A stretch of 64,000 nucleotides of DNA from the NCBI GenBank assembly GCA_964499705.1, contig CAZCME010000001.1, positions 323,243 through 387,242 on the forward strand. The letters are read 5' to 3'. The position numbers and the translations under genes are program-made. Of the stretch, positions 8,465 to 30,747 are shown piece after piece (position 1 is the stretch's first letter; each line of letters begins with the position of its first letter). The stretch is from an uncultured bacterium (GTDB lineage Bacteria > UBA8481). Under the pieces are notes generated by a model. It was given only the letters and a program-made list of their open reading frames with translations. It did no database searches and was not told the DNA's origin.

Positions 8465-8824
8465 TCAGGTTTCGGAAGAGAATTCCTCGTCCAGCCCGTC
8501 GAAGAAATACAGCACGCGCGGGCAGCGATCGGGATAGCGGGCGCATGTCTCGAAGCTGCCGTTGATGCAGCAGTTCCTGAGTTCGCGCGTTTCCAGCGCG
8601 GAGTGAAAGGCGCGGGCGCCCAGGAGCTCGACAAAAGCCTCCAGGCACGGGCAGAGAAAGGCTCCATACACGCGGATTTTGTTGCGCGGAGCGGTATCCA
8701 CGTGAAGCACAATCTCATTTTCGATCAGCTCCATCTTCGTCATGTGGCCTACGAGCGGGCAGCATACCTCGTCCTCGCGGCATTTGCAGGGATGATGCGA
8801 CTTGCTATCCGGCAGCCTCGACAT
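8465..8824 (-). CDS. Small Cys-rich hypothetical protein (10 Cys in 119 aa)
   Basis: CKC, CCP, CPC, CCINGSFETCARY, RCP; start overlaps the Crp gene end and the stop lies 12 nt before the reductase start. Confidence 0.65.
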   Translation of the reverse strand: MSRLPDSKSHHPCKCREDEVCCPLVGHMTKMELIENEIVLHVDTAPRNKIRVYGAFLCPCLEAFVELLGARAFHSALETRELRNCCINGSFETCARYPDRCPRVLYFFDGLDEEFSSET

Positions 8825-9485
8825 AGTTATTTCCATTGACCAGCTCCTCCAGACCTTTCCTGTCCAGGACGACGATCTCCTGAGGCTTGATGTCGATCAG
8901 ATTCATCCGCTTAATCTTGTTCAGATGGCGGCTGGCGGTCTCCCGGGCCACTCCGAGGCGGCGGGCGAGCTCCTCCTGCGAGAACTTTACCGGGTTATTA
9001 AGGAGAAAATGCGCCACACGTTCGAAGCTGGGCCGCAGCGAAATATCCTCGATAAGAGCGGTGCAGGAGCGGACCTTGTGCGCCAGATGCGAGCAGAGAC
9101 GCCCGGGGAGAGAGGGGATCGTCGCGAAGAGGCGCGCGAAGCTGTCGTTGGAGATCGCGAAGACATGGCAGTCGGTCAGCGCTTCGCCGTGCGCGGAACA
9201 GCAGAGGCTTCCGCCGTCGCACCCGTTCATCTCGGGAGGATGGCAGGAACAGGTATCGCCGGGTCCCAGGGTATCGATGATCTGTTCCTTACCGGTGGAA
9301 GACAACAGGGTCAGCTTGACGCTTCCGGAGCGGATGAAAAAGCAGTGGCTGCAGGGATGGTCTTTCAGAAAGAGCGATTGCCCCTTCTGATAGTGCCGTT
9401 CCTTCCAGAGGGACTGGATGAGCCCCTGTTCCTGTTCGGTCAGATTCGCGAAGAGCGGGAAGTCGGCGGCCTTAGAACGATCCAT
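8805..9485 (-). CDS. Crp/Fnr family transcriptional regulator, Cys-rich
   Basis: cNMP-type beta-roll (FIRSGSVKL...GKEQII...GPGD) and C-terminal HTH SQEELARRLGVARETASRHL; GAGGTG RBS before ATG 9485. Confidence 0.9.
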   Translation of the reverse strand: MDRSKAADFPLFANLTEQEQGLIQSLWKERHYQKGQSLFLKDHPCSHCFFIRSGSVKLTLLSSTGKEQIIDTLGPGDTCSCHPPEMNGCDGGSLCCSAHGEALTDCHVFAISNDSFARLFATIPSLPGRLCSHLAHKVRSCTALIEDISLRPSFERVAHFLLNNPVKFSQEELARRLGVARETASRHLNKIKRMNLIDIKPQEIVVLDRKGLEELVNGNNYVEAAG

Positions 9486-9656
9486 GTGACACCTCGATTC
9501 CCTGCTGAACCATGACGGCGGTTCGGCGGGAGAAGGAACCATCGGAGGCGGGATGGGCTTCGAAAAGCCGTCCGCCGCGATCCCTCCAGATTCCTCCATC
9601 CTCATTCGCCACATTTTGTATTCGTCCTATTGTGGCGTAGGGCACGCCCTGATAGC

Positions 9657-9689: not shown

Positions 9690-9821
9690 TCACGAGACGT
9701 CCGATGGGTTGGTTGAACATGTTTTTCCTTCCTCCTTCAAGTCGAGCCAGATGTCGTAAGCGAGAATAATTCCGTAGGCGCAGATGAACGCCATAGTCAG
9801 ATACTGCATATCAACTGTCAT
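9690..9821 (-). CDS. CcmD-like small membrane peptide (43 aa)
   Basis: Manual translation MTVDMQYLTMAFICAYGIILAYDIWLDLKEEGKTCSTNPSDVS: one hydrophobic helix with Tyr residues and a charged tail, overlapping the ccmC stop. Confidence 0.55.
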   Translation of the reverse strand: MTVDMQYLTMAFICAYGIILAYDIWLDLKEEGKTCSTNPSDVS

Positions 9822-10467
9822 GATGTATGCTCCCCATGCGTTTCCTCGCGAAGTAAAAAGCGAGGATGAGAAACGCGGCGGTGTTGGCGAAGACGGTATT
9901 CCGGATTGCCGGATCGCTGAAGAAACCTCCGCCCGATGTCGGATGACCGATCGCGCCCCAGATCTTTATCGAGAAGAAGACGACGGGCACGTCGAGGAAA
10001 GCGACGATCGAGAGAACGGCGCTGTAGCGCGCGCGCTTCTCGGGATCGTCGATCGCGGTGCGGAGGATGAGGTAGCCGAGATACATGAGCCACAGGACGA
10101 GAAACGACGTGAGGCGCGGCTCCCATGTCCAGTAGCTGCCCCAGGCCGCGCGTCCCCATATGGGACCGGTCGTTATGACGATGGAGGCGAAGATCCAGCC
10201 CGCTTCCGCGGTGGCCGCCGACAGGGCGTCCCAGCGCGGGCTGCGGTTGCGGAGATATCCGCAGGCGGCGACGAAGGAGACGAAGAGACAGAGAAAGGAG
10301 ATCCACGCCGCGGGCACATGAAAGTAGAAGATGCGGAAGGCATCGCCGAGCGGTGTGCCGTCGGGGCCGGCCATCGGCGGAGCATAGCCGAGCGACATGA
10401 AGATGCCCGCCAGAAGGGACGCCGCCGCGACGTGGCGGCCGATCAGGTTGCAGGTACAGGAATTCAT
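9811..10467 (-). CDS. ccmC: Heme exporter / cytochrome c biogenesis protein CcmC
   Basis: IFYFHVP, tryptophan-rich WGRAAWGSYWTWEPRLT, C-terminal GHP. Confidence 0.88.
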   Translation of the reverse strand: MNSCTCNLIGRHVAAASLLAGIFMSLGYAPPMAGPDGTPLGDAFRIFYFHVPAAWISFLCLFVSFVAACGYLRNRSPRWDALSAATAEAGWIFASIVITTGPIWGRAAWGSYWTWEPRLTSFLVLWLMYLGYLILRTAIDDPEKRARYSAVLSIVAFLDVPVVFFSIKIWGAIGHPTSGGGFFSDPAIRNTVFANTAAFLILAFYFARKRMGSIHHDS

Positions 10468-11867
10468 GCGGACCTCAGGGCGCGATCGCGATTGGCCCGG
10501 AGAAATGTGAGGATCCGGTCCGCGGCATCGCAGCCCGATCCGAATGTCTGCCCGACCGACGTGCCGTCGCGGAAATTACCCGCCATGAAAAATCCCGGAT
10601 TCTCTCGCTCCAGCCGCTTCATGATCCCCCGGAATTTTCCGTATCCGACTTCATACTGGGGGATCGCGTGCGAGTGTCGATCCAGGTGGACGTGAGCGGG
10701 ATGCCCCGTCACGCCGAGCAGAATCCGCAGATCGTGCAGCGTCAGCTCCAGGAGCGCCTCGAGCGATTTATGCTCCACGGATGGATTTCTCGCTCCGCCG
10801 ATGAAGTTCGTGATGAGGACGTGATTATCAGGAGCGCGATTAGGAAAGAGCGATGACGTGAAGAGGGTTCCCAGGAGAGCGAGACCTTCCACGCGGGGAA
10901 CAAGCATTCCGAAGCCGTCGAGCGGATGCAGGACATCGTTCCGATTAAAGCCGAGCGTGACCGTGATGACGGGCGGATAGGGAATGAGCCGCAGCAGGGA
11001 CATGGCCCGGAACGCATCGCCATGGAACGTGATCTTAGGGAGCTGCCACGCGGGCGTCGTGACGAGGATGGCGTCGTGCCGGAAATGCTCCTCCACGCCG
11101 TGAACGGAGCAACCGACGATCCAGCCGTGCAGATCGTGGGAGAGGGACGTCGCCGGCGTGTTGAAGAAGACTTCCGCGGCCAGCCTCGCGTGGAGAGCTC
11201 CAGGGAGCGCGCCGAGCCCGTCCCGGAAGGAATACATCGTCGTTCGTCCCGCGGATTCGACGGACGGATTCCGGGCGCGATTCTTCCGGGCCGCGAGCGC
11301 GCCCTTGAAGAGCGAGCCGTACTCCCGTTCCATGGCGTCGATCTTCGGAAACGCATGATGGACGGAAAGTTTCTCCGGATCGCCCGCGTAGATTCCTCCC
11401 ACGAGCGGGTCGACTCCGTAATCGAGAATTTCTTCTCCGAGCCGCCGCCGTACGAAGTGCGCGAGATTCTCATCCTCGGCGTCCGTGCGCGGAGCGATGA
11501 ACGGCTCCCCGAGCAGCCGCATCTTGGCGCCCGTGGTGAAGAGCTCCGTCATGAGAAACGATGCCGCCGAGTCCGGAACGACGACGGGTTTGCGGTTGCG
11601 GACGATATAGCGGCGCTTCGCGCAGGGATTCGCGACGATCTTCTGATCCGAAAGACCCAGCTCCCGGATCGACTGCGTGATCTTGTCGCCCGTGTCCATC
11701 AGCGTGTGCGGTCCCGACTCCGAGAGAAATCCGTTCTCGCGTATCGAGCGGATGACGCCGCCCGCATGATCTCCCGCCTCATACACCGTCACGTGGCATC
11801 CCGATTTCTTCAGGCGCCACGCCGCTGCGAGTCCGCTGATTCCTGCTCCGATGATCCCGACGTTCAT
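10464..11867 (-). CDS. hemY: Protoporphyrinogen/coproporphyrinogen oxidase (HemY type)
   Basis: GAGISGL, ESGP, GIYAGDPEKLS, GFGMLVP, AIPQY. Confidence 0.92.
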   Translation of the reverse strand: MNVGIIGAGISGLAAAWRLKKSGCHVTVYEAGDHAGGVIRSIRENGFLSESGPHTLMDTGDKITQSIRELGLSDQKIVANPCAKRRYIVRNRKPVVVPDSAASFLMTELFTTGAKMRLLGEPFIAPRTDAEDENLAHFVRRRLGEEILDYGVDPLVGGIYAGDPEKLSVHHAFPKIDAMEREYGSLFKGALAARKNRARNPSVESAGRTTMYSFRDGLGALPGALHARLAAEVFFNTPATSLSHDLHGWIVGCSVHGVEEHFRHDAILVTTPAWQLPKITFHGDAFRAMSLLRLIPYPPVITVTLGFNRNDVLHPLDGFGMLVPRVEGLALLGTLFTSSLFPNRAPDNHVLITNFIGGARNPSVEHKSLEALLELTLHDLRILLGVTGHPAHVHLDRHSHAIPQYEVGYGKFRGIMKRLERENPGFFMAGNFRDGTSVGQTFGSGCDAADRILTFLRANRDRALRSA

Positions 11868-12028: not shown

Positions 12029-12832
12029 CTACTGCGGTTTCGTGAATTGGAAGTCCTGGGAGAGTGCGTCATTGGCGGCCGCCACGGTGATGGTGGCTTT
12101 CTGCGTCCCCAGTTTTTCATGCCATGCCTCGATCGTGTAGGTACCGGGAGCCAATCCTGAAATCTTGTAAGCCCCATCGGTACCCGTGACCGCGAAGAAT
12201 GGGTGCGACATGACGGTCGCCCAGCCGCCCATCCACGGATGGACATCGCACTTTATGGGAAACATGCCTTCCGGTTTATCGAAGACCTGCGTGGCTTCCG
12301 TGCGCGTCTTCGGCATCGCCATGTTGAACTCCGCGTTCACCTTGGGCATCGCGTGGACGTTATGGAGCGTGCCGTCGGGATTCAGGATCTTCAGCGTCTG
12401 TCCTGCCATGAGCGCCATGACATGCGGCTTGTACTGGCAACCCTCCTGCGTGAGGACGACAGGTTCGCTCGGAGCGGGCCAGGTTTTGTTCGGCAGCCCG
12501 GCGGTGATGGAGACGAAGACATTCGCCATCGTGTTGCCCTCACCGAGCACCAGGGCCTCCGAGACGACCGGCGACTTATGCCTGGCCACGCAGACAGGAT
12601 CGGCGTTCATCGGAACCACGGGCATCTTCGGCGGGACGCCGTCGAACTTGATCACGCCTGAAACCGAGGCATTGCCCGTGGTTGTCGTGGCTGCGACCGG
12701 CGCGGGCGCCTGCTCCGCTGGTTTCGGCGCCGCGGGTTCGACCCTGGCCGGAGGCTGACCGCCGCAGGCGGAAAGACCAGCGAAGAGGATGACAGCGAGG
12801 GACGATAGACGGGACCGGTTGTTGAACTTCAT
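12029..12832 (-). CDS. Lipoprotein with cupredoxin-like and carboxypeptidase-regulatory-like domains
   Basis: Lipobox LSAC; HNVH...KCDVHPWM type-1 Cu ligand set; GTYTIEAWHE. Confidence 0.8.
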   Translation of the reverse strand: MKFNNRSRLSSLAVILFAGLSACGGQPPARVEPAAPKPAEQAPAPVAATTTTGNASVSGVIKFDGVPPKMPVVPMNADPVCVARHKSPVVSEALVLGEGNTMANVFVSITAGLPNKTWPAPSEPVVLTQEGCQYKPHVMALMAGQTLKILNPDGTLHNVHAMPKVNAEFNMAMPKTRTEATQVFDKPEGMFPIKCDVHPWMGGWATVMSHPFFAVTGTDGAYKISGLAPGTYTIEAWHEKLGTQKATITVAAANDALSQDFQFTKPQ

Positions 12833-12878: not shown

Positions 12879-13088
12879 TTATTTGTCATGGTTGAAATGG
12901 CCTTTCTTGAAACTCCAGAATCCGATGGCGCCGACGACGAGGAAGGGGACGGGAAACAGAAACGCGACGGCGCTCCAGATGCCCGCCTGGTTCGTCGCCG
13001 TGACGACGCACGAAGGGCATGCCGCGGCATTTTCCGCCCACAGGGCGGACACGAGCGCCGCGGCAAGGATCCGGCGCAGGAAGTTCAC
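12879..13088 (-). CDS. Small membrane protein with CxxC after a signal peptide (69 aa)
   Basis: GTG start overlapping the cox III stop; MNFLRRILAAALVSALWAENAAACPSCVV...one TM helix. Confidence 0.6.
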   Translation of the reverse strand: MNFLRRILAAALVSALWAENAAACPSCVVTATNQAGIWSAVAFLFPVPFLVVGAIGFWSFKKGHFNHDK

Positions 13089-13705
13089 GACCAGTACAGA
13101 AGGCCGTAGAGGATCGGCCATATTCCGACGACGAAGTACCAGAACATCGCGCAGAGCTCCACGCCGAGATGACGGGTCGAGTGATAGCGGGAGGCGCGGG
13201 CGCGCGACAGCACGAAGAGAAGCAGCGTCATCGCCGCCGCGACATGAAGTCCGTGCGTTCCAATGATCGTGTAGAAGATCGCTCCGTAGATGCTGGACGA
13301 AAGCGTCATTCCATGCCGCAGGAGCCCGATCCATTCGTATCCTTGAAGGACAAGAAAGAGTCCTCCGAGCGCGGCAGTCGCCGTCATGAATCGCGCGAGT
13401 TCCGCCGTCCGTCCGCTCCGTATGCTCCGCAGGCCGCGCCGCATCGTGAATGCGCTGGCCATGAGAAATGCCGTATTGAAGAGCGTGACGAAGACGGGCA
13501 GGCGAGGCTGTCCCGCGGGTGGCCACGATTCCGCTCCCGCCCGGAACGCGATGAAGGCGCTCACGAATCCCGCGAAGAACATGATCTCCGCGCCGATGAG
13601 GAGAATCATTCCGAAGCGCGCCGCGTTATCGGCGCGCGCATGCGAGTCATCCTGGAAGGCCGCATCCAGGACGCCGGGATCGAGACAGGCGACGGTCGCG
13701 GGCAT
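13085..13705 (-). CDS. Heme-copper oxidase subunit III (second copy)
   Basis: AEIMFFAG, NTAFLMAS, QGYEW, FYTIIGTHGLHV, FWYFVVGIW. Confidence 0.9.
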   Translation of the reverse strand: MPATVACLDPGVLDAAFQDDSHARADNAARFGMILLIGAEIMFFAGFVSAFIAFRAGAESWPPAGQPRLPVFVTLFNTAFLMASAFTMRRGLRSIRSGRTAELARFMTATAALGGLFLVLQGYEWIGLLRHGMTLSSSIYGAIFYTIIGTHGLHVAAAMTLLLFVLSRARASRYHSTRHLGVELCAMFWYFVVGIWPILYGLLYWS

Positions 13706-13708
13706 GGA

Positions 13709-14014
13709 TTATTTTTCCGCCGACCGGATGAAATTATCCGCGAAGCTGATGTCCGGCAGGAGGAGGATGACGAGGATGACGAGAAGAAGAATCGGGACGA
13801 CGACGAGCGACGCGACGAGCGCGCCTTCCGAACGGACGTGCATGTAATTGCGGATGACGAGCGTCGCTTTCCACGCGGCGATACTGAAGACCGCGGCGGC
13901 CGCCGGTGCGGCCGGCAGGTGAAACGCGCCGACCGCCACGGAGACGGCCATGAGGATCATGAGCCCGATCCAGATTCCCGTGTAGTTGATCTTGTGTCCC
14001 GATTCTTCCGTCAT
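13709..14014 (-). CDS. Heme-copper oxidase subunit IV (caa3/CtaF-like)
   Basis: Three TM helices, KATLVIRNYMHVRSE motif. Confidence 0.82.
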   Translation of the reverse strand: MTEESGHKINYTGIWIGLMILMAVSVAVGAFHLPAAPAAAAVFSIAAWKATLVIRNYMHVRSEGALVASLVVVPILLLVILVILLLPDISFADNFIRSAEK

Positions 14015-14018: not shown

Positions 14019-14630
14019 TCAACCTCCTGAGCTTGAAAGATAGAGCAGCGGAAAGAGAAAGATCCAGACCACGTCCACCATGTGCCAGTACAGAGCGCAC
14101 AGCTCCACGCGGTGCCCGATCGGCGCCAGCCTTCCTCGGATGGCGTAGAGCATGAGAATGAAAAGCGCGAGAGCTCCGACAATCACGTGCAGCGCGTGGA
14201 AGCCCGTCATGAAGAAGTAGAACGACCAGAAGGTGCCGGACGCGGGCAGAATCCCGATGGAAATCTTGGAATAGTATTCATACGACTTGATGCCGAGAAA
14301 AGCCACGGCCAGGATGACGGTGACGGCCAGGAAGCGGATCACGGCTCCGGACTCGCCGCGATTCTGCGCGGCGAAGGCGCGCGCCACGGTGTAACTGCTC
14401 GTCAGGAGAATGATGGTGTTGATCGTTCCGAGCGTGACGCTCAGGTGCCCGGCTTCGTGCGCCCACTCCGGGTGCGCCAGCCGGAAGAGGACATAGCAGG
14501 CGATCAATCCGCCGAAGATCATGATCTCCGAGGAGATGAGGAGCCAGACGCCGAGCTTGCCGGAGGAGAGCCCGGCCGGCCCGGAGGAATGTTCGGCGGC
14601 GTGGATGTCGATGGCGGCGGAGTGAGACAT
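14019..14630 (-). CDS. Heme-copper oxidase subunit III (first copy)
   Basis: WLLISSEIMIFGG, NTIILLTSS, FFMTGFHALHV, LYWHMVDVVWIFLFPLLY. Confidence 0.92.
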   Translation of the reverse strand: MSHSAAIDIHAAEHSSGPAGLSSGKLGVWLLISSEIMIFGGLIACYVLFRLAHPEWAHEAGHLSVTLGTINTIILLTSSYTVARAFAAQNRGESGAVIRFLAVTVILAVAFLGIKSYEYYSKISIGILPASGTFWSFYFFMTGFHALHVIVGALALFILMLYAIRGRLAPIGHRVELCALYWHMVDVVWIFLFPLLYLSSSGG

Positions 14631-14632: not shown

Positions 14633-16318
14633 TCACAGGGGCGCCGCGCCGAGTTCGACATGTCCGTCCTGCGGGAGGAAATCCGCCGCACCGAGATCGG
14701 GGCGGCTGTAGACGTAGGGGCCTTCCGTCACGACCGGAAGGCTGCCCGGCCAGTTGCCGTGCGGCGGAGGGGAAGCCGTCCGCCATTCGAGCGTGTTCGC
14801 GTGGAACGGATTATTCTCCGCGACCTTTCCGCGCATCATGCTCCAGAAGAAGTTCACGACGAAGAGCCCCTGGCTCGCGAGGAGCGCGATCGCGGCGTAC
14901 GTGACGTGGACGTTCAAGCCCTTCACCTGGTCCAGCATGGCGTACTGCGAGGGATCCGCGATACGGCGCGGCATGCCTGCGGCTCCGATGAGGAAGATCG
15001 GCCAGAAGACGCCGTTGAAGAAGATGAAGGTGAGCCAGAAGTGCGCCTTGCCGAGCTTTTCTCCGAACATCCGTCCGAACATCTTGGGGAACCAGTAGGA
15101 GATCGCGGCGAAACCGCCGAAGAAGACCGAGGGGAAGAAGGTGTAGTGGAAATGAGCCACGACGAAATGCGTATCGTGGAAATAAATGTCCGACGCGGCG
15201 GCTCCGAGGAAGATCCCGGTGAGGCCTCCGATGAGAAACGTGGCGAGGAAGCCGAGCGCCCAGAGCATCGGCGTCGTCAGCTCGATGGAGCCGCGCCAGA
15301 CCGTGAGGAACATGCAGATGACCATGAGCGAGAACGGGATCGAGATGAGGATCGTCGCCATCGAAAACGGCATCGCGAGGCGCGGATTCATGCCGCTGAT
15401 GAACATGTGATGCGCCCAGACGACGTACGAAAGCGCGACCGCGACGAGCATCGACCAGACGATGGTGCGGTAGCCGAAGACCGGTTTCCTGGAGAAGACG
15501 GGCAGGATCTCGATGACGACTCCCATCGCGGGCAGGAGAATGACGTAGACCTCCGGGTGGCCGAAGAACCAGAAGAGATGCTGCCAGAGGAGCGGATCGC
15601 CGCCGCGGCTGGGGATGAAGAAACCGGCGCCGGCGACGTTGTCCAGGAGGAGCATGACCGCGCCGGCGATGAGGGGGCCGACGGAGAAGAAGAAAGCGAG
15701 CGTGGCGCCGATGAGGCACCAGACGAGGATCGGCATCCGGAACCACGTCATCCCCTTCGCGCGCATCATGACGGTCGTCGCGAGGTAATTGATGCCGCCC
15801 ATGGTGGATGCGGCGAAGACGAGGGCGAGCGAGAGGATCCAGAGCGTCATGCCCCATTCGACTCCGGAGTATTGGCTGGACGCGGAGAGGGGAGGATAAG
15901 CGGTCCAGCCGCAGGCGGCGGGACCTCCGGGGACGAAGAAGGCGGCCATGATGACGAGGGCCGCGAGAAACGTGACCCAGAAGGAGAGCATGTTGATGCG
16001 GGGGAACGCCATGTCCCGGGCTCCGATCATGAGCGGGATGCAGAAGTTTCCCAGGGCGCCCACGAGAATGGGCATGCCGACGAAGAAGACCATGATCGTG
16101 CCGTGCATCGTCACCATCGCGTTGTAGATGTCGGGCGTCACTTCGGCGCCCCACGGCGTCGGCCGGTCGGGCCATGCGAGTTGCCACCGGATGAGAAACG
16201 AGGTGAAGCCGCCCACCAGGGCCATGGCCAGGCCCAGCAGCAGGTATTGTTTCCCGATCATCTTGTGATCGGTGGAGAAGAGGTAATGAAACCAGAAATG
16301 CCGGAGCCTTGTCTTCAC
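14633..16318 (-). CDS. ctaD: Heme-copper oxidase subunit I, A1-type signature
   Basis: TMHGTIM, ARDMAFPRINMLSFW, GWTAYPPL, WFFGHPEVY, VWAHHMF, HDTHFVVAHFHY, GMPRR; GTG start overlaps the subunit II stop. Confidence 0.96.
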   Translation of the reverse strand: MKTRLRHFWFHYLFSTDHKMIGKQYLLLGLAMALVGGFTSFLIRWQLAWPDRPTPWGAEVTPDIYNAMVTMHGTIMVFFVGMPILVGALGNFCIPLMIGARDMAFPRINMLSFWVTFLAALVIMAAFFVPGGPAACGWTAYPPLSASSQYSGVEWGMTLWILSLALVFAASTMGGINYLATTVMMRAKGMTWFRMPILVWCLIGATLAFFFSVGPLIAGAVMLLLDNVAGAGFFIPSRGGDPLLWQHLFWFFGHPEVYVILLPAMGVVIEILPVFSRKPVFGYRTIVWSMLVAVALSYVVWAHHMFISGMNPRLAMPFSMATILISIPFSLMVICMFLTVWRGSIELTTPMLWALGFLATFLIGGLTGIFLGAAASDIYFHDTHFVVAHFHYTFFPSVFFGGFAAISYWFPKMFGRMFGEKLGKAHFWLTFIFFNGVFWPIFLIGAAGMPRRIADPSQYAMLDQVKGLNVHVTYAAIALLASQGLFVVNFFWSMMRGKVAENNPFHANTLEWRTASPPPHGNWPGSLPVVTEGPYVYSRPDLGAADFLPQDGHVELGAAPL

Positions 16319-17001
16319 CAGACGATCTCCTCGCCGACGGCTTCCTTCTTCCACGCCTCGAATTCCTCCGGAGTCTGGACGATGAGCTCGCCGAACATTC
16401 GTGTGTGCCCCAATCCGCAAAGCTCCGCGCAGGCGATCGGATAGGTCCCGGTCTTCGTCAGGGAGAACCACGCTCCGATCTTCCTCCCCGGGAGCACATC
16501 CTGCTTGAAGCGGGCGGCCGGGACGAAGAAGCTGTGAATGACGTCCGTCGATTCGAGCTCCAGCTTGATCGTCTTCCCGACGGGAACGCGGAGTGAACCG
16601 CGGATCGTGACATCGTCCTTCGTGTCGAGCTTCTCATCGGGACCGGCGTAGATGAAATCCCAGTAGAACTGCTGAGCGCGGACGCGGACGACGAGATCCG
16701 GCCGGGGAATATTTTCCTTCACCATGGCCCAGGCTCGCGCGCCCTTCACGTCGATCCCGAGGTCGATCGTGAAGACGACCGCCGCAAAGACGAGGATCCC
16801 CGTGACCGCCGCGCGCGACTCGCCCGTCAGGAACGTCGCGGCTCGCCCCTTCGTCCGGCGGAACCGGAGGACGGCGACGAGGAGATAGGACTCCATGACG
16901 ACGAAGAAGAAACCGACGATGCCGTAGATGAGGAAGATGAGGCTGTCGATCTCGCCTCCGAACGTGGAGATATTCTCCGGCAGGTATTTGAACATCAGCA
17001 T
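16315..17001 (-). CDS. ctaC: Heme-copper oxidase subunit II with CuA site
   Basis: QFYWDF, DVIHSFFVP, CAELCGLGHTRM; alternative start at 16995. Confidence 0.94.
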   Translation of the reverse strand: MLMFKYLPENISTFGGEIDSLIFLIYGIVGFFFVVMESYLLVAVLRFRRTKGRAATFLTGESRAAVTGILVFAAVVFTIDLGIDVKGARAWAMVKENIPRPDLVVRVRAQQFYWDFIYAGPDEKLDTKDDVTIRGSLRVPVGKTIKLELESTDVIHSFFVPAARFKQDVLPGRKIGAWFSLTKTGTYPIACAELCGLGHTRMFGELIVQTPEEFEAWKKEAVGEEIVW

Positions 17002-17049
17002 CGGGCTCCGTGAAGGTATGACATAGCTCCTCGATTTAACAAAAAGATA

Positions 17050-17106
17050 AAAAGACCGTCAAGTCTTTTATTAGATTAATGTTAACAAAAGACTTGATAG
17101 TCTTTT
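17050..17106. promoter_or_regulatory. Two palindromic operators AAAAGAC-N6-GTCTTTT, probable Rrf2 sites
   Basis: 17050-17069 AAAAGAC-CGTCAA-GTCTTTT and 17087-17106 AAAAGAC-TTGATA-GTCTTTT in the AT-rich divergent promoter region. Confidence 0.75.
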
Positions 17107-17128
17107 GTCCGGCCGTCACAATACGGCC

Positions 17129-17569
17129 ATGTTCTCCGCCAAGTGCACCTACGCGATCAAGGCCGTCCTGACCCTGGCCCGGGAGGAGGCGGCGGGGGCG
17201 GAGACGGGCATGCGGATCAGGGACCTGGCTAAAAAGGCCGACCTGCCCGGACCGTACCTGGCCAAGATCATCGGGGAGCTCGCCCGCGCCGGCGTTCTCC
17301 GGACCGCGAAGGGCCTGAAAGGGGGCGTGCGGCTGGCCCGGGCCGCGAACCGGATCACGCTCGGCGACGTGGTCGAAGCGATGGACCGGGTCGACGGATA
17401 CCGGCAGTGCGTCCTGGAGCCGCGCCCGTGCAGCGAGGTCGCCTTCTGCCCTCTCCACAAGACCTGCAAGGTGATCCGGGAGCAGATCCTCAAGAAGTCC
17501 AACTTCTCCCAACTCTGCCATGCCTACGACGTCTGCGGCACGATGCGGAAGGGCAGAAAGCGCGCGTAG
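17129..17569 (+). CDS. Rrf2 family transcriptional regulator (3-Cys, likely Fe-S binding)
   Basis: YAIKA...YLAKII..L...G..GG..LAR...ITLGDVVEA; CVLEPRPCSEVAFCPLH. Confidence 0.92.
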   Translation: MFSAKCTYAIKAVLTLAREEAAGAETGMRIRDLAKKADLPGPYLAKIIGELARAGVLRTAKGLKGGVRLARAANRITLGDVVEAMDRVDGYRQCVLEPRPCSEVAFCPLHKTCKVIREQILKKSNFSQLCHAYDVCGTMRKGRKRA

Positions 17570-17610
17570 CGTCCCTCGGAACGCCGGTTTCATCGGTTCC
17601 ACATGTTTCA

Positions 17611-18849
17611 TCAGCGGGGCGTCGCGGCGGCGGGCTTGGCGATGAGCCGCGTGATGAAGATTCCCCAGATCACGATGCCCGCGATCCAGAAGATCCCGGC
17701 CAGCGCGAGATGCTCGAAATAGGAATCGATGACGAAGGCCGCTCCGATCCGCGAAAGAAGTCCGAAGACGATGCAGAATCCTCCGATCCGCAACGGCCAT
17801 GACTTCGATTCCTTCTCCAGGCTGAATCCGCCGTGCGCCAGCGCGACGCGGGTCGCGATCGCGAGTATGAGGAGAGAGAAGCCGCCCATGAACATGAAGT
17901 GCAGGAGATCGATGCCGATTCCCGGCGAGATCGCGGCTCCCCAGAGCGCGACGAGGATGGAAAGATTGGCGATCCAGATCGTCTTGGCGAGCGTGGTTTG
18001 CGCCCGAGGCAGTCGCCAGGGCGGAACGGTCAGGGCGAGAAAGACCGTCACGACCGCCGCACGGGCCCAGGCCGCCGCGGCCAGGTCCAGGATGTATTGC
18101 GCGTAGAGCGTCGCGCCGACGGCCAGGCCCGAGGCGATCGCGGCGCCCGTCAGCATCCGGCTCGATCGCGGAAGGATCGGGCGACCGTCCGCGTCCGTGG
18201 GAAAGAGGACGAGCCCCATGAGGCGCGGTTCCAGAAACGCGCCGATGCCCATGACGAGCGAGAGCACCATGCCCTCGGTAAGCATTCTAAGCCCCAGCAT
18301 GCTCCAGACCGGCTCGATCACTTCCCAATCCACCAGCGCGTTCATGGTGGTGCCGGTGAAGCCGAAGAAAAGGCCGATGCCGACGAGCGGAAACGTGTCG
18401 GGAGGATTATGGCTGCGCCGGAGAAAACGCCCTACGGCCGCGACGATCACGACGGCCTGCGCGGTGAGGAAGAAGAGATTTCCCCAGCGGAACGACCAGA
18501 GCTCGAACGCCATCGTATCGGCGACGAGGAGAAGCGCGACGGAAGTCTTGAAAGCGGTGCCCGGAAGGGGAGTGCGGGTCATGCGCGGAAGCGCCGTCAT
18601 CAGGAATCCGACGATGAAGCTGTACAGGAATCCCGCGATCTGGACCATCGCGTGCGCGCGTCCCGAGTACGTTTCGAGGAATCCATAGTGATAGAGCGGC
18701 CAGACCGCCACGCCGGCGATCCCGAGGAGGACACCGAGCGGAAAGAAGATGCGATAGGGTTCGCAGGGAGCGTGCGTCAAGGATTGCGCGCGCGCAGGGG
18801 AGCGCGATATCACCCGGAGCGGGTTGGCTGTGGCAATCGATGGAAGCAT
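17611..18849 (-). CDS. nnrS: NnrS family membrane protein
   Basis: EPYRIFFPLG, HAMVQIAGFL..FIVGFLMTALP, LLHFMFMGG...ATRVALAHGG. Confidence 0.82.
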   Translation of the reverse strand: MLPSIATANPLRVISRSPARAQSLTHAPCEPYRIFFPLGVLLGIAGVAVWPLYHYGFLETYSGRAHAMVQIAGFLYSFIVGFLMTALPRMTRTPLPGTAFKTSVALLLVADTMAFELWSFRWGNLFFLTAQAVVIVAAVGRFLRRSHNPPDTFPLVGIGLFFGFTGTTMNALVDWEVIEPVWSMLGLRMLTEGMVLSLVMGIGAFLEPRLMGLVLFPTDADGRPILPRSSRMLTGAAIASGLAVGATLYAQYILDLAAAAWARAAVVTVFLALTVPPWRLPRAQTTLAKTIWIANLSILVALWGAAISPGIGIDLLHFMFMGGFSLLILAIATRVALAHGGFSLEKESKSWPLRIGGFCIVFGLLSRIGAAFVIDSYFEHLALAGIFWIAGIVIWGIFITRLIAKPAAATPR

Positions 18850-18928: not shown

Positions 18929-18944
18929 TGTGAGAAATGTTACA
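18929..18944. promoter_or_regulatory. Crp-type operator candidate upstream of nnrS
   Basis: aaaTGTGA-GAAATG-TTACA about 80 bp upstream of the nnrS start. Confidence 0.5.
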
Positions 18945-18954
18945 GGGGGAATCC

Positions 18955-19054
18955 NNNNNNNNNNNNNNNNNNNNNNNNNNNNNNNNNNNNNNNNNNNNNN
19001 NNNNNNNNNNNNNNNNNNNNNNNNNNNNNNNNNNNNNNNNNNNNNNNNNNNNNN
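18955..19054. other. Assembly gap (100 N)
   Basis: Run of N; true length unknown. Confidence 1.
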
Positions 19055-20097
19055 CCGCCGTGTTCCGACGCTATTTCCTGCGCGATGTAGAGGCCCAGGC
19101 CGAGCCCGCCCTGCTTGTCATGATGTTGGCCGCGCTCGAACTTGCCGAAGATCCGATCCCGGTCCTCCGGGTGTATCCCTTTGCCGCGATCCGACACGGA
19201 TAGGGTGGCGTGGACTTCATCGCCGCGGATGATCAGCTCGATCGGGGCATGCGCGCCGTGCCGGATCGCGTTCGTCAGGAGGTTCACGATGATCTCCTCG
19301 ATGCGCAACCGGTCGCAAAGGCAGGTGACCGGTTCCGGCGCGTCGACCTTGAGCGTGCAACCCGCGCGCGCCAGGGGGGACTCCAGGCGCGCGGCACTTT
19401 CATGAACCAGGTTCCGGAGGTCGCATTCTTCGAGGTTCAGCCTGTGGTCGCCCGAGGCAATGCGCGAAACGCTCAGCAGATTCTCGATGAGCCTCGCCAT
19501 CCGTTCCGCCTGCTGCTCGGCGATCTCGATCTGTCGGGCGAATCCTTCTTCGGAGATGGCGACCTTCGATTTGCCGCGCGCCATGCGTGCGATCCCCTGG
19601 AGCTGGAACTGGAGCGCGCTGAAAGGTGTCTTCAGTTCATGCGAAGCGATCGCCACGAACGTATCGTGCTTGCGCTTCGCTTCCTCCGCCTCGGCGCGCG
19701 CCACTTTCTCGCATTTCAGAAGTCGCGCGCATTCCTGCTCGGCGAGGACTCGCGCGGTGACGTCGCGAACGAGCTCGACACCGGCGACGATCCGGCCCAT
19801 GGAATTGCGGAGAGGGGAGGCCACGATCTCGAAATACCGGTCACCATGTTTGCAGTCAATGCGGCGCGTGGAGATATGACTGCCGCCGTCCTTCAGGGAT
19901 CTCTCCAGGGGACAGTGATCACAGACGACCTGGCGGCATTCGTACGCATCGTGGCATGTGCGGCCGACATGACTGCCGAACACGCTCTGATGTTGCGCGT
20001 TCTGGTACAGAATGCGGAGATTTTCATCGAGGACGACGATTCCGTCGGCCAGAGCATTCAGGAAATCCTGGGGTCGGATTTCATCGAGAACTCTCAT
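19055..20097 (-). CDS. PAS-domain sensor histidine kinase (C-terminus lost in the gap)
   Basis: PAS with CHDAYECRQVVCDHCP, H-box ASHELKTP, N-box NLLTNAIRH, G1 DRGKGI, G2 GLGLGL. Confidence 0.92.
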
Positions 20098-20111
20098 CGC
20101 CCTATCTCACC

Positions 20112-20558
20112 TCATGCGCTCGAGCGACTTCTTCCGCTTCCGCCGTTCCGGGCAGGAATTCTCTTCTGACGAGGAGCATTCTTCACCATGATGGCGGCAA
20201 GGCAGCCGTTGGCATGGGAATCGGGACGAACGCCCAGGACATGATGGACGAATTTGTCGACCTGGTGGAGGTGTTCGGTCTCGCCGCGTCGCGCCATCGC
20301 GCAGAGCGAAGAGCAGACTCCGGCCTCCAGTTCTTCCGCGGGAGATATGGCCAGCGACAGAAGGCGCGGGCATTTCATGGCGCGTGCGAGGCGATAAAGC
20401 GTCGTCAGGGTGATGTTGACCTTGCCGTTTTCGATCCTGCTGTAATAACGAACATCGAGGCTTGCTCGATCGGCGATCTGGATCTGCGTCAGGCCGAGCT
20501 CACCCCTTAGATGTCTCATCCTTCGTCCGAACGCGAGTATGAGCGGATTTTCCTTCAC
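20112..20558 (-). CDS. XRE-family HTH transcriptional regulator
   Basis: FGRRMRHLRGELGLTQIQIA...YYSRIENGKVNITL. Confidence 0.82.
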   Translation of the reverse strand: MKENPLILAFGRRMRHLRGELGLTQIQIADRASLDVRYYSRIENGKVNITLTTLYRLARAMKCPRLLSLAISPAEELEAGVCSSLCAMARRGETEHLHQVDKFVHHVLGVRPDSHANGCLAAIMVKNAPRQKRIPARNGGSGRSRSSA

Positions 20559-20733
20559 AATGCGCGCGAATTATCGCTTCCCCCCTTCCGTAAAACAATC
20601 TACTCGCATCACGATAATTGGGTCCGTTATCGCATCGGAAGGCGATATAAGTCGACAACAGATGCATATCCATTATGACAGGATCGAATGCCGGAAGTTG
20701 TGACGCGCGGATCGGCCGGGCCGGGATCGACGA

Positions 20734-21408
20734 TTAACAGTCCGTCGGCTTGCCGGATTTCTCCTTCGAGCCGCGCGCCCGATACCGAGAGCGATCGAGC
20801 TTTTCGGCCAGCAGCTCGACCTGGCGGCTGGCGACCTGCAGGAGGCCGGCGACATCATCGGCGCCCAGGTCGGCCTTGGATTCTCCGACGGCCGCGCGGG
20901 CAAGGCCCTGCAGCTGATAACTGACTGCAAGGGTCGCCGCTTTCAGCTCATCGGCGACGGTCTCCATGAGCGCGTCGCGATGTCGCAACGCGTTCTCCGC
21001 CTCCGCCCGCGAATTCTTCTCCCGCTCCAGGAGCCGCTCGCGCGCCTGTTCAGCGTGCACGCGCTCGGTGATGTCGCGGACGAGCTCCACGCCCGCGACG
21101 ACCCGGCCCCACGAATTGCGGATGGTCGATGCGGCGATTTCCACGTACCGGTCGCCGTTCGGATGGTGAATGCGACGCGTGGAGACGTGCCGCTCCCCGT
21201 CCTCCAGGGCGCACTCCAGAGGGCATCGATCGCAGATGACCTGTCCGCATTCGTAGGCATCCTTGCATTTTCGTCCCACATGCCTGCCGAAGATGTCCTC
21301 GTGGGTCGCGTTCTGATACAGGATGCGAAAAGTGGAATCCAGGACGACGATCCCGTCCGGTATGGCGTTCAGGAATGCAAGAGGCCGTATTTCATCAAGA
21401 ATTCTCAT
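20734..21408 (-). CDS. PAS-domain protein; truncated paralogue of the adjacent kinase lacking the phospho-His and ATPase domain
   Basis: N-terminus closely parallels 19055-20097 (MRILDEIRP...CKDAYECGQVICDRCP...AGVELVRD); H-box reads VADELKAA. Confidence 0.75.
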   Translation of the reverse strand: MRILDEIRPLAFLNAIPDGIVVLDSTFRILYQNATHEDIFGRHVGRKCKDAYECGQVICDRCPLECALEDGERHVSTRRIHHPNGDRYVEIAASTIRNSWGRVVAGVELVRDITERVHAEQARERLLEREKNSRAEAENALRHRDALMETVADELKAATLAVSYQLQGLARAAVGESKADLGADDVAGLLQVASRQVELLAEKLDRSRYRARGSKEKSGKPTDC

Positions 21409-22504: not shown

Positions 22505-22687
22505 GCAGAGGTTCCCCAACTGAAGAATCTTTAACCACGAACCACACGAACCACACGAAAATAGGCCTTTCGATGGGATAAAATTGAGTCCGCGGTCGCG
22601 GAGAGTATTCTTTTACCTCTTCTCACTTTTCTTTTCGTGGTTTTCGTGTGGTTCGTGGTTTCAGGTTTTGTGGATGGGGAACTTCTG
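22505..22687. mobile_element. MITE-like inverted-repeat element with 9-bp tandem-unit arms (copy 2), nested inside 7-bp-unit inverted repeats
   Basis: Left arm gcagaggttccccaactgaagaatctttaaccacgaaccacacgaaccacacgaaa; right arm 22633-22687; interior homologous to the reverse complement of copy 3. Confidence 0.75.
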
Positions 22688-22777
22688 TTTGTTCGGATTT
22701 CAGATTTAAGATTTCGGATTTGAAATGCGTTTCACCGTGTCCGCTCTCACACATCGATTCCCATTCTCGAAAACGCT

Positions 22778-22795
22778 TTGTGAATGCTTTCACCC
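22778..22795. promoter_or_regulatory. Rex/Crp-like operator candidate upstream of the hydrogenase operon
   Basis: TTGTGAA-TGCT-TTCACCC versus Rex consensus TTGTGAA-N4-TTCACAA; also fits TGTGA-N6-TCACC. Confidence 0.5.
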
Positions 22796-22890
22796 TATTT
22801 GAGACGGGGTCGATATATCACATTTCAAATTATGAGAGTTGCCGGCGGAACATTTCCTGCAGTCTTTATTGCGCGGGAGGTGCCGGAAAC

Positions 22891-23160
22891 GTGTGCCTGG
22901 CAGTACTCGCGCGTGTCGCGCATCACAGTGGTGAGGACGCGGTCGTGGAGATTGGCGGCGTCCGGCGTGCGGCATCGCTGGCGCTCCAGCCCGATGCCAG
23001 GCCCGGCGATTGGGTCCTTGTGCATGCGGGATATGCTATCGCGCTGCTCGATGAAGAGGAAGCTCTGCGAGCGCTGGCGGATGCGCAGGGATTTTCGGGA
23101 GGGTGGGAAGAAGGAGCCGATCCGGAATTGGCTCCGATTCATGCGAACGACGCATCGTGA
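22891..23160 (+). CDS. hypC: Hydrogenase maturation chaperone HypC
   Basis: GTG start giving MCLAV; GDWVLVHAGYAI; GGAGG RBS. Confidence 0.93.
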   Translation: MCLAVLARVAHHSGEDAVVEIGGVRRAASLALQPDARPGDWVLVHAGYAIALLDEEEALRALADAQGFSGGWEEGADPELAPIHANDAS

Positions 23161-24350
23161 TCTTTCCGGCTCTGGAATCGGGAATTCAGGTTTCGAACGA
23201 GAAGAATCCCATCGCGGCCTGGCGTGATCCACGCCTTGCGCGCACAATCCTCTCGCAGATTCGCAGGCTCGCCGTCGAGGCGGGCCGTCCGCTCCGGTTC
23301 ATGGAAGTCTGCGGGACGCACACGATGTCGGCGGCTCGCGCCGGTCTGCATGATCTTCTGCCGAATTCCGTCCGCCTCTCGTCGGGCCCCGGTTGCCCGG
23401 TCTGCGTCACCTCTCCAGGTTTTATCGCCGCCGCCGTGGATCTTTCCCGCGATCGCCGTATCACGATCGCGACGTTCGGAGATCTTGTCCGTGTGCCGGG
23501 TGCCGCCGCGCCCGCCCACCGTGTTTCGCTGGAACGTGCGCGCGCATCCGGCGCCGATATCCGCGTCGTCTATTCCGCGCTGGATGCTCTCGCGCTCGCG
23601 CGGCGCGATGCCTCCCGCGAAATCGTCTTTCTCGGCGTGGGTTTCGAGACAACGGCTCCCACCGTTGCCGCCGCGGTCCGGCGCGCCGCGATGGAAGGCA
23701 TCACCAACTTCAGCGTGCTGCCCGCCCACAAGACGATGCCGCGCGCGCTCAGGGCGATTCTCGATTCCGGCGATGTCAGGATCGACGGGCTCCTCTGTCC
23801 CGGTCACGTCTCGGTCATCACGGGATCCCTGGTCTATGGATTCATCGCGCGCGAATTCGGAGTGCCCTGCGCGATCGCGGGATTCGAACCGGTGGACATG
23901 CTCGTCGGTATCCGCTCGCTGCTGGAACAGCATGTCGCGGGACGCGCGGAGGTCGTGAACTCCTACGGCCGCGTCGTGCGCGATGAGGGGAACTTCCGCG
24001 CGAGGAATCTTATGGACGAGATCTTCGAGCCGGAGGACGCCGAATGGCGGGGCTTCGGAGTGATTCCGGAATCGGGCCTGGGATTTCGCCGGGAGCATCA
24101 CCATCGGGACGCGGTGAGGCGATTCCGAATCGTCGTTCCGCGGATCATGCCTCCGCCGAGCTGCCGCTGCGGCGAAATACTGCGCGGCGCGGAGGAACCC
24201 GACCAGTGCGCTCATTTTGGGCGTGATTGCATTCCGGCGCGGCCGGTCGGCCCCTGCATGGTTTCGAACGAAGGCGCCTGCGCGGCGGCGTTTCGATACA
24301 GGCGAGCGCCGCTCTCGATCGGTTCACTGGTATCGGAAGCGACCGCATGA
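23157..24350 (+). CDS. hypD: Hydrogenase maturation protein HypD
   Basis: MEVCGTHT, GPGCPVC, GFETT, PGHVS, CRCGEIL, GPCMVSNEGAC. Confidence 0.96.
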   Translation: MIFPALESGIQVSNEKNPIAAWRDPRLARTILSQIRRLAVEAGRPLRFMEVCGTHTMSAARAGLHDLLPNSVRLSSGPGCPVCVTSPGFIAAAVDLSRDRRITIATFGDLVRVPGAAAPAHRVSLERARASGADIRVVYSALDALALARRDASREIVFLGVGFETTAPTVAAAVRRAAMEGITNFSVLPAHKTMPRALRAILDSGDVRIDGLLCPGHVSVITGSLVYGFIAREFGVPCAIAGFEPVDMLVGIRSLLEQHVAGRAEVVNSYGRVVRDEGNFRARNLMDEIFEPEDAEWRGFGVIPESGLGFRREHHHRDAVRRFRIVVPRIMPPPSCRCGEILRGAEEPDQCAHFGRDCIPARPVGPCMVSNEGACAAAFRYRRAPLSIGSLVSEATA

Positions 24351-25450
24351 ACGGTAGAATCCTCGACCTGAAACGGCCAGCGCGGCCCCTCACCGAGGGC
24401 TTCGACGGCCGGGTCCTCCGTGCGCATGGCGGCGGCGGCAGCGCGACGCGCGATCTGCTCGAGGCAATAGTCTTTCCTCGCCTGTCGAATCTCCGCCTGG
24501 ACGAACGAGGCGACTCCGCGGTGTGGTCTCCGGAGTTGAAGCCCGGCGAGCGGCTGGCTTTCACGACCGACGCGTTTGTCGTGACGCCGCTGGAATTTCC
24601 CGGCGGCGATCTCGGGCGGCTCGCGGTCTGCGGCACGGTCAACGATCTTGCCGTGAGCGGCGCGCGTCCCCAGGCGATTTCGCTCGCTCTCATCCTTGAA
24701 GAAGGTCTTCCCTTTGACACGCTCCGCAGGCTCGTCGATTCCGCGCGATCGGCGGCGGAGGAAGCGGGAGTGGAGATCGTCACGGGAGACACGAAGGTGA
24801 TCGAGAGCCGTGGCGACGCGGGTTGTTTCGCGGTGACGAGCGGGATCGGCGTCATCCCTTCCGGAAGAAATCTATCCCTGCGGAAAATCCGGCCGGGCGA
24901 CGCCATCATCGTGACCGCGTCCATCGCCAATCATGGAACGGCGATCATGGCCGCGCGCGACGGCATCGGGTTCTCCGGGGATATCTCCTCCGACGCCATG
25001 CCCCTGAACGGCCTCGTCGAGGGATTCCTGCGTGCCGTTCCCGACACGCGTTTCCTCCGGGATGCCACGCGCGGAGGTGTCTCCGGTGTCGTGTGCGAAG
25101 TCGCGGAATCCACCGAGCATAACGTGCGGCTCAGGGAATCGGCTCTGCCCATCCGGCCCGGGACGCGCGCCGCGCTGGAACTGCTCGGGCTCGATCCGCT
25201 CGATGTGGCCAATGAAGGTGTGCTCATCGCCATCGTTCCCGGCACCGCGGCGAATTTCGCGCTGGAGGCCCTGAGGAGCGACCCGGCGGGGCGTGAAGCG
25301 GCCATCATCGGCTCGATTCTCGACGGCTCAAATCATGGCGACTTGTCTCGTAACGACATGTCGCGTGGCCACGCCGAACTGGAGACCTCCACCGGCGGCC
25401 GGAGGATTCTCGTGCCTCCTTACGGAGAGGAACTCCCGCGCATATGCTGA
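24347..25450 (+). CDS. hypE: Carbamoyl dehydratase HypE
   Basis: HGGGG, FPGGDLGRLAVCGTVND, GDTKV, RDATRGG, C-terminal PRIC. Confidence 0.96.
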   Translation: MNGRILDLKRPARPLTEGFDGRVLRAHGGGGSATRDLLEAIVFPRLSNLRLDERGDSAVWSPELKPGERLAFTTDAFVVTPLEFPGGDLGRLAVCGTVNDLAVSGARPQAISLALILEEGLPFDTLRRLVDSARSAAEEAGVEIVTGDTKVIESRGDAGCFAVTSGIGVIPSGRNLSLRKIRPGDAIIVTASIANHGTAIMAARDGIGFSGDISSDAMPLNGLVEGFLRAVPDTRFLRDATRGGVSGVVCEVAESTEHNVRLRESALPIRPGTRAALELLGLDPLDVANEGVLIAIVPGTAANFALEALRSDPAGREAAIIGSILDGSNHGDLSRNDMSRGHAELETSTGGRRILVPPYGEELPRIC

Positions 25451-30742: not shown

Positions 30743-30747
30743 CTCCG

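Follow-up and report, generated by a model that had tools for sequence, protein, structure and literature searches.

A CuA-bearing A-family oxidase from an uncultured bacterium in which the canonical K channel is predicted to be closed

A 64,000-nucleotide stretch of DNA from an uncultured bacterium (GTDB lineage UBA8481; assembly GCA_964499705.1, contig CAZCME010000001.1, positions 323,243 to 387,242 of the forward strand) contains an operon for a haem-copper oxidase (HCO). The whole stretch is called the window here, and all coordinates refer to it. Two genes on the minus strand are of most concern. coxI (14633..16318; Pfam COX1, 6.9e-139) encodes subunit I of an A-family enzyme with the helix VI Glu, i.e., an A1-like oxidase. 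coxII (16315..17001; Pfam COX2, 9.1e-15) encodes a subunit II with two transmembrane helices and a CuA cupredoxin domain, and is without a cytochrome c domain. The long open reading frame (ORF) of coxI runs from 16471 to 14633, but the likely start is a GTG at 16318 that overlaps the coxII stop codon, and the resulting product of 561 amino acids matches the protein on record. As judged by alignment, this enzyme retains an intact O2-splitting site (three CuB His, the cross-link Tyr and two haem sites), E286 and an intact D channel, and the canonical K path has become hydrophobic, with Ile at S299, Phe at T359, Met at K362, Cys at S365 and Ala in place of the subunit II Glu.

The coxI product matches solved aa3 subunit I chains at about 1e-125 (HMMER), and scores 591.7 bits against the CtaD_CoxA equivalog model TIGR02891, under its cut-off of 670.75. 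In the HMMER alignment to mycobacterial CtaD, helix VIII is without gaps: s-i-p-F-s-l-M in the query stands opposite a-v-p-T-g-i-K, where the Thr/Lys pair is taken to be T359/K362 of R. sphaeroides, whose numbering is used throughout. This alignment and a reading of the DNA place Phe at the T359 position (TTC, 15332..15334, minus strand) and Met at the K362 position (ATG, read from 15325 to 15323 on the minus strand). Both replacements, and the gapless helix, had been proposed in an original prediction made from the letters of the window alone. Two K-channel positions beyond those named there are also changed: the S299 position is Ile (15512..15514, minus strand, as calculated from the ORF start) and the S365 position is Cys. 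The A356 position is occupied by Ser (15341..15343, minus strand); it lies three residues, or about one helical turn, before the T359 position, presumably on the active-site side given the topology of helix VIII. The residues that the prediction had listed as retained are all found in the alignment, namely the six His, the GHPEVY motif, the equivalents of D132, N121, N139 and N207 in the D channel, the HD pair and the RR pair. In the 561-residue protein the equivalents of D132 and E286 are D102 and E256, the A356-position Ser is S326, and the acid at the H300 position is E270. An AlphaFold2 model of subunit I has a pLDDT of 90.5, and Foldseek matches it to aa3 and bo3 subunit I with TM-scores of 0.85-0.90.

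The same pattern is found in close relatives. A set of 120 subunit I proteins was assembled at 60-69% identity to the query, one per 90% cluster, with source names that include Deltaproteobacteria, NC10, Rokubacteria, Binatia, Methylomirabilales and Acidobacteriota, among others. None of them has Lys at the K362 position, which is Ile in 70, Val in 28, Met in 12 and Leu in 10. The T359 position is Phe in all 120. Ser is absent from the S299 position in every relative (Leu in 99; Met, Cys and Val in 5 each), in contrast to its presence in 87/91 K-bearing representatives of 50% clusters. The S365 position is Ala in 84, Ser in 22, Cys in 13 and Leu in 1. Catalytic residues vary hardly at all: the six His, E286, Y288, D132, N139, N207, S142, R481 and R482 are kept in 120/120 and N121 in 119/120. 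Three further features of the clade are uniform. Ser at the A356 position is specific to it (120/120, vs Ala in 81/91 of the K-bearing representatives), the T352 position is always Thr, and the H300 position is always acidic (105 Glu, 15 Asp). Close to the top of the D channel the query departs from the majority of its kin: it retains Ser-Thr at the S200/S201 positions, where 107/120 relatives have Phe and 105/120 have Leu, and four residues earlier it is without a Glu found in 89% of the clade.

A clade of K-less homologues under constraint had been offered as a check on the prediction, and this is what the relatives supply. At the level of sequence, their conservation shows that both an O2-type active site and the D channel are under selection. 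The loss of Lys is thus supported as a natural, heritable variant of an enzyme whose catalysis is under constraint. In public records many members of the clade (e.g., proteins P0028, P0044, P0052, P0059 and P0062) go under the name 'cbb3-type cytochrome c oxidase subunit I'. That label is the wrong type for A-family enzymes with CuA partners, and was probably given because the proteins score under the CtaD equivalog cut-off.

Subunit II gives a less uniform picture. The coxII product scores 146.7 against TIGR02866, where the cut-off is 147.7. Its CuA ligands (H, C, E, C, H, M) are complete and are kept in 120/120 relatives, which places the enzyme with the cytochrome c (CuA) oxidases and not with quinol oxidases. 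At the canonical entrance to the K channel, HMMER alignments to 2yev_B and 1qle_B set Ala65 of the query (16807..16809, minus strand, again calculated from the ORF start) against the entry Glu of T. thermophilus caa3 and P. denitrificans aa3. The prediction that the usual entry motif is lacking is therefore right for the query itself, but a Glu of its own, in a GES motif, lies about four residues upstream, and the loss is not general among its kin. Helix 2 ends in D-x-x-I-D in the query and in 113/120 subunit II relatives, an ending absent from K-bearing loci. In these 113 clade-type proteins the canonical Glu column holds Glu in 79, Gln in 28, Ser in 4 and Ala in 2, the query being one of the two, and column 61 is acidic in 97. 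Helix 2 of the query has also changed Trp to Gly and Pro to Phe, where the Trp is kept in 116/120 relatives and the Pro in 107/120. The loss of Glu, Trp and Pro is a minority state inside the clade.

Across a wider sample the subunit II Glu follows the Lys of helix VIII. Eighty related cox loci were collected from species-representative genomes, and subunit II was located in 73 of them. The Glu is present in 53/53 loci with Lys, vs 6/20 without it, so that the coupling of the two residues across genome loci is clear. A residue that is invariant where Lys is present and drifts where Lys is gone matches what would be predicted for a disused pathway.

Absence of the Lys is not confined to the clade of the query. 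Among the 150 nearest 50%-cluster representatives, a sample skewed toward kin of the K-less query, Lys is present in 91 and absent in 59, being replaced by Gln (16), Ile (14), Leu (11), Val (5), Met (4) and a few others. Among the 80 loci it is present in 57 and absent in 23. The description of K362 as near-invariant in A-type oxidases, from which the prediction had started, was thus an overstatement. A FastTree phylogeny was built from 211 rows: the query, loci with a subunit I ORF of at least 480 amino acids, every eighth of 119 closest relatives, and those representatives that cover at least 85% of the query, shorter rows being excluded. The query falls within a clade of 31 rows, at a support of 100, in which no row has Lys. 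This clade also contains locus L001 and a group with P-I-A-E-M in helix VIII, from Myxococcota, Gemmatimonadota, Bdellovibrionota and Puniceicoccaceae bacterium K14, and is joined at a support of 80 by a second Lys-less clade of 7 rows. With a midpoint root, the whole Lys-less group adjoins K-bearing enzymes of Acidobacteriota. The Lys state requires 12 changes on this tree, and the starred branches force at least 8. Because the root itself was not inferred, gain and loss are formally inseparable; repeated loss would be the simpler reading of the tree. Loss of the Lys is recurrent, and on the counts above it is not rare. Ser or Thr at the 356 position is found in 61/66 rows with a hydrophobic residue at 362, vs 1/127 rows with Lys. 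The proposal that loss in both subunits marks a distinct subfamily has fared unevenly. The subfamily holds, as a fully supported Lys-less clade, but its subunit II component is not clade-wide; the original observation was stronger than stated for subunit I and weaker for subunit II.

Two Lys-less groups were noted in addition. In a sister group (loci L003-L006, L008, L010, L012-L015, L018 and L035) helix VIII reads P-I/L-A-E-M/L, with a Glu one residue before the position of the lost Lys, and helix 2 of subunit II has a conserved Pro-His. This group may represent a different solution to the same loss. A separate clade consists mostly of long proteins (~650-860 amino acids) that mostly have Gln for Lys, in the sequence P-S-G-I-Q-V-F (a few have His, Ile or Ala). 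It is represented by P0163, P0168, P0175, P0176, P0178, P0185, P0194, P0209, P0215, P0227, P0233, P0242, P0262, P0264 and P0265, among others. The longer of these proteins look like subunit I+III fusions.

In the Pereira classification, the A1 subtype is defined by a D channel that ends in the helix VI Glu and by a K channel made up of Lys and Thr in helix VIII, Ser in helix VII and the subunit II Glu. The query and its relatives have the first. In place of the second, the query has Met, Phe and Ile in subunit I and Ala in subunit II. It belongs to the A family by its COX1 match, by the six His that serve two haem sites and CuB, and by the fold of 12 TM helices that it matches in Foldseek. The HPxVY sequence of the cross-link Tyr is present as GHPEVY, with Tyr in 120/120 relatives, although the covalent link itself is beyond the reach of sequence. 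By tree and active site the enzyme would be classed as A1-like, yet it falls short of the full A1 definition. Its best matches are all A-family enzymes. The features of HCO-type nitric oxide (NO) reductases (cNOR, qNOR, eNOR, sNOR, gNOR and nNOR), which are a missing Tyr cofactor, a changed active site or FeB ligands, and affinity to the B or C family, are not found in it.

Canonical A1 aa3 oxidases (R. sphaeroides, P. denitrificans and mycobacterial CtaD) have the same fold as the query, with TM-scores of 0.86-0.89 and 38-44% identity. They share with it the six His, HPEVY, the D channel, the Mg site, the Arg pair and a CuA subunit II. They differ at the four K-channel positions of subunit I (S299 I, T359 F, K362 M and S365 C in the query) and at the subunit II Glu, and the query operon in addition has two subunit III-like genes and a cupredoxin lipoprotein instead of a cytochrome c. 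The K362M mutant of R. sphaeroides has Met at the very position where the query has it, and its structure (PDB 3om3) is among the best fold matches. Replacement of K362 by Met abolishes oxidase activity but not peroxidase activity, the latter depending on the D channel only (PMC7601700 in its accessible part, citing Vygodina 1998), as the original prediction had stated. The mutant, however, carries one substitution in a K path that is otherwise intact, and is dead as an oxidase, whereas in the query the whole path has been remodelled, and conservation of the remodelled path throughout a clade implies that the enzyme works.

Publications on other lineages have already noted Lys-less A-family oxidases, to which the clade that retains the helix VI Glu adds a further case. 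In acidophilic iron oxidisers and some of their non-acidophile relatives, Lys of COX1 is replaced by, e.g., Ile with the D channel kept, the entry Glu of COX2 is lost, and the enzymes are called A2 type (accessible text of Degli Esposti et al., bioRxiv 10.1101/2020.03.01.968255). The same text describes soil-bacterial variants in which COX3 is duplicated and the cluster includes a copper protein or c4 cytochromes, and rus-like clusters with duplicated COX3 in metagenome-assembled genomes of Gemmatimonadetes. K-channel variants are also treated in its published version, Degli Esposti et al., Front Microbiol 2021 (PMC8239418), where the part available counts seven independent losses among archaeal A-family enzymes. 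A cytochrome oxidase (COX) without the Lys has been reported from Ferrigenium straubiae, its meaning being called unclear in the accessible part of that report (bioRxiv 10.64898/2026.01.22.701106). The rus-operon type, as far as the available text describes it, has in common with the query a hydrophobic residue for Lys, a replaced subunit II Glu and a retained D channel, and the Lys-less sister loci from Gemmatimonadota and Myxococcota resemble the soil variants described there. It differs in being reported as A2, while the query and its 120 relatives keep E286, and in having Cyc2/Cyc1 and rusticyanin in the cluster; in the window no c-type cytochrome gene was found, and a type-1 copper lipoprotein is present. 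The suggestion that an existing description of the clade might be found is thus borne out in part: Lys-less A-family oxidases have been described, and a literature search that took in the accessible text of the K-less COX papers found no paper describing the Glu-bearing Lys-less clade.

NO reductases of the HCO superfamily were compared as well. O2 reduction by HCO enzymes needs the Tyr, which HCO-type NO reductases lack, and the newer NO reductase families (eNOR, sNOR, gNOR, nNOR and bNOR) are B-related, according to the accessible text of PMC11214002. These share with the query a membrane-bound HCO subunit, a CuA-type subunit II and, for some, occurrence in the same uncultured phyla; they differ from the query, which has a full O2-reductase site. 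Assignment as an NO reductase of the sNOR or eNOR type was rejected, since those families are described in that source as B-related and without Tyr, and the query has both the Tyr and three CuB His.

The remainder of the operon follows coxII and coxI on the minus strand; the cox ORFs are uninterrupted, and their starts and stops are coupled. coxIII, the first subunit III-like gene (14019..14630; Pfam COX3, 8e-23), is placed with its ATG 2 nt after the coxI stop. coxIV (13709..14014) encodes a prokaryotic subunit IV (Pfam COX4_pro, 2.2e-09; TIGR02229, 39.1 vs a cut-off of 37.25). A second subunit III-like gene (13085..13705) matches NCBIfam aa3_CtaE_Actin at 5.4e-32, under the cut-off, and is present in most related loci. 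Next comes a lipoprotein gene (12029..12832), then a HemY-type protoporphyrinogen oxidase (10464..11867; TIGR00562, 3.9e-89, above cut-off), a CcmC/CcsB-like haem-handling membrane protein whose gene overlaps the hemY stop (9811..10467; TIGR01191, 1.3e-38, under cut-off) and, last in this order, a Crp/Fnr regulator (8805..9614).

The lipoprotein combines a type-1 copper domain with a CarboxypepD_reg-like C-terminal domain and is a candidate electron donor to the oxidase. Its signal peptide ends in ...LSAC, which is taken to be a lipobox-like motif. It matches blue copper protein and amicyanin weakly (E = 0.0017), and the copper ligands, H...C-x2-H-x2-M, are invariant in 29/29 rows made up of the query and homologues from related cox loci. 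The motif CxxCH is absent from all 48 predicted genes of the window, and no gene for a Cyc2-like or other c-type cytochrome was found there, so that the cupredoxin lipoprotein is the only candidate donor in view. Homologues occur near A-family cox operons, both K-bearing and K-less (L001, L007, L019, L020, L023, L025-L027, L029, L033, L040, L075 and others). Pfam and NCBIfam name only the C-terminal domain, and the family may be an unrecognised group of membrane-anchored electron donors.

Upstream of coxII, and divergent from it, lies a gene for an Rrf2-family regulator with the Cys pattern C-x6-C-x5-C (17129..17569, plus strand; TIGR00738, 84.5 vs a cut-off of 73.3). Although the listed ORF begins at 17105, the family-typical N-terminus is read from the ATG at 17129. 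The protein passes the Rrf2 superfamily model alone; against the NsrR model NF008240 it scores 38.3 bits, where the cut-off is 182. The 127-bp spacer between coxII and rrf2 holds two perfect copies of the palindrome AAAAGAC-N6-GTCTTTT, at 17050..17069 and 17087..17106, the second of which overlaps a promoter-like site for rrf2. Two copies were obtained in 0/100 shuffles, and a third copy is absent from the window even at up to 2 mismatches. The pair is likely, to judge from its sequence and position, to be the operator for the Rrf2 regulator. A gene for NnrS (17611..18849, minus strand) ends facing the Rrf2 gene, 610 bp from coxII. Since it is located past the oppositely oriented Rrf2 gene, it is outside the cox operon.

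Related loci have different neighbours. Searches with phmmer, using the Rrf2 and NnrS proteins of the window against all ORFs of the 80 loci (E <= 1e-5), found neither beside cox in any locus (0/80), and neither was seen in a Pfam scan of 38 neighbouring ORFs from four Lys-less loci (13/17 predicted ORFs of L001, 11/18 of L005, 7/18 of L012 and 7/18 of L004). A shared gene neighbourhood with these two genes, as once anticipated for the K-less homologues, is therefore not seen in this sample of genome loci, the 120 closest relatives being represented by protein records only. What the four loci have instead are di- or tri-haem cytochromes c upstream, COX4 and a second COX3. L001 adds a plastocyanin/azurin-type protein and a UbiA-family gene, probably for haem O synthase, and L005 has an Fe/Mn superoxide dismutase. 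Neighbours of this kind are those of an ordinary aerobic terminal oxidase. In L001, 5 kb downstream of the Lys-less operon, a second cupredoxin-like gene precedes another clade-type coxII, which carries a fused cytochrome c domain (15837-17623). The operon is thus duplicated in tandem, and the locus ends before the corresponding coxI.

With these features in hand, the locus is read, with somewhat better than even confidence, as encoding a CuA-bearing A-family (A1-like) O2 reductase in which the canonical K path is closed and which is probably fed by the D channel. The enzyme would still reduce O2, with electrons reaching CuA from the cupredoxin of the operon and protons delivered by way of the D channel. 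The D channel alone may then be the supply of protons. The Ser conserved at A356 sits one turn above T359, where the path is plugged, and may be of help in the uppermost part of the former K path. Control of the operon probably lies with the divergent Fe-S Rrf2 regulator, through the two palindromes of the shared promoter region. An anaerobe-like remainder of the window points to a role in microaerobic respiration or O2 scavenging. It encodes PFOR, NiFe hydrogenase with HypC/D/E/F, acetate kinase and a BcrAD-type activase (1417-4989, 22648-31914, 31911-33158 and 50822-55375), and the organism has the look of an anaerobe, facultative or oxygen-tolerant. Relatives of the acetate kinase bear names from mixed phyla. 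Acidophilic iron oxidisers with a Lys-less COX are aerobes, and respire O2 with that oxidase.

Several points weigh against this. The laboratory K362M enzyme loses its oxidase activity completely (PMC7601700, accessible part), so some compensation must exist in the K-less clade. The association of Lys loss with Ser/Thr at the 356 position is only suggestive: in a test of independent pairs there were 8 contrasts, of which ~4.5 were concordant and 0 opposite, with a median p of 0.06. The same test gave median p values of 0.06 for loss of T359 and 0.25 for loss of S299, and none of the three was significant at 8 contrasts. Neither a CtaA nor a CtaB gene was found in the 64-kb window, and the literature search found no activity measurement for any clade member. 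The cupredoxin donor, the control by Rrf2 and the microaerobic role are steps drawn from gene position alone.

If the Lys is gone, the path it belonged to might nevertheless have been rebuilt, with hydroxyls, acids and waters carrying protons through the same region as in B-family oxidases, whose K-channel analogue has no Lys. That channel is mentioned in PMC11214002, as far as its text was available. A rebuilt path would use the Thr at T352, the Ser at A356, the E/D at H300 and the subunit II E/D four residues before the old Glu. The first three are present throughout the 120 relatives, the last corresponds to the acidic column 61 (97/113), and Ser/Thr at 356 is seen in 61/66 hydrophobic-362 rows vs 1/127 K rows. 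The middle of such a path, though, is uniformly hydrophobic, with Phe at 359 in every relative, Ser at 299 in none and Ala at 365 in 84, and the old subunit II Glu has drifted to Gln, Ser or Ala in 34/113, as expected of a disused entrance. The test of independent pairs, not significant at its 8 contrasts, gives no firmer footing, and a rebuilt path is considered rather improbable. Sequencing or assembly error, or a decaying paralogue, is another explanation; in its favour, ATG and the AAG of Lys are one base apart and helix 2 of the query subunit II is unusually divergent. Yet four positions of subunit I and one of subunit II have changed together, the ORFs are intact with coupled starts and stops, the model is confident (pLDDT 90.5), and all 120 relatives share the loss of Lys with their catalytic residues kept. 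The chance of error or decay is vanishingly small, and for practical purposes this explanation is refuted.

A change of substrate was the explanation favoured in the original prediction, which took the neighbouring Rrf2 and NnrS genes to fit a switch to H2O2 or NO. The enzyme would then be a membrane-bound, possibly proton-pumping peroxidase, or else an NO reductase, governed by an NO- or redox-sensing Rrf2 protein and placed near NnrS. In favour of this, K362M keeps a peroxidase activity that depends on the D channel only (PMC7601700, accessible part). The divergent rrf2 with its two palindromes in the shared promoter region and the short distance to NnrS suit it too, and the anaerobe-type genes of the window would suit defence against peroxide or NO. 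Against it, Rrf2 and NnrS are beside cox in 0/80 related loci, NnrS is outside the operon, and the Rrf2 protein is not NsrR by score. The cross-link Tyr, absent from HCO-type NO reductases (PMC11214002, as far as available), is invariant in the clade, and CuB has its usual three His and no FeB-type Glu set. Lys-less relatives are found in ordinary aerobic-respiration contexts. Substrate change is thus unsupported, and is regarded as quite unlikely. In one particular form, the clade would be a natural 'proton-pumping peroxidase' that has abandoned the reductive, K-dependent half-cycle with O2, runs only the peroxidase half-cycle fed by the D channel, and conserves energy with H2O2 as terminal acceptor; a redox-sensing Rrf2 protein may be its switch in an otherwise anaerobe-like organism. 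This is speculative, and its odds are put as low as those of substrate change in general. In a milder reading, the enzyme may be a true O2 reductase in which the D channel by itself delivers all eight protons per O2.

The K channel is held to be essential in A-type oxidases on the strength of dead single mutants. A large conserved clade in which the K channel is filled, with the O2 site and D channel kept, provides a natural experiment on how protons are delivered while the active site is being reduced. O2 reduction through the D channel alone, if true, would overturn the notion that two input channels are needed in A-type enzymes. At least one Lys-less relative, Puniceicoccaceae bacterium K14 (L022), has a record whose title does not mark it as a metagenome-assembled genome and, if it is a culturable isolate, would open the question to bench work. 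There is relevance for annotation as well, with clade proteins that fall under the CtaD cut-off and in many cases carry the wrong cbb3 label.

Two other features of the window were noted. Upstream of NnrS, two ORFs on the minus strand (18940-21408) start with PAS domains that are nearly identical (Pfam 13-117 in each). One of them (18940-20097) encodes a complete histidine kinase and the other (20734-21408) a PAS domain only, with an HTH_3 gene between them. A protein of 1710 amino acids (56651-61783, plus strand) has FG-GAP and NHL repeats and a weak match to TcdB_toxin_midN (E = 6.4e-06, over 29 residues), and would seem to be a large surface protein of a repeat or Rhs-like kind.

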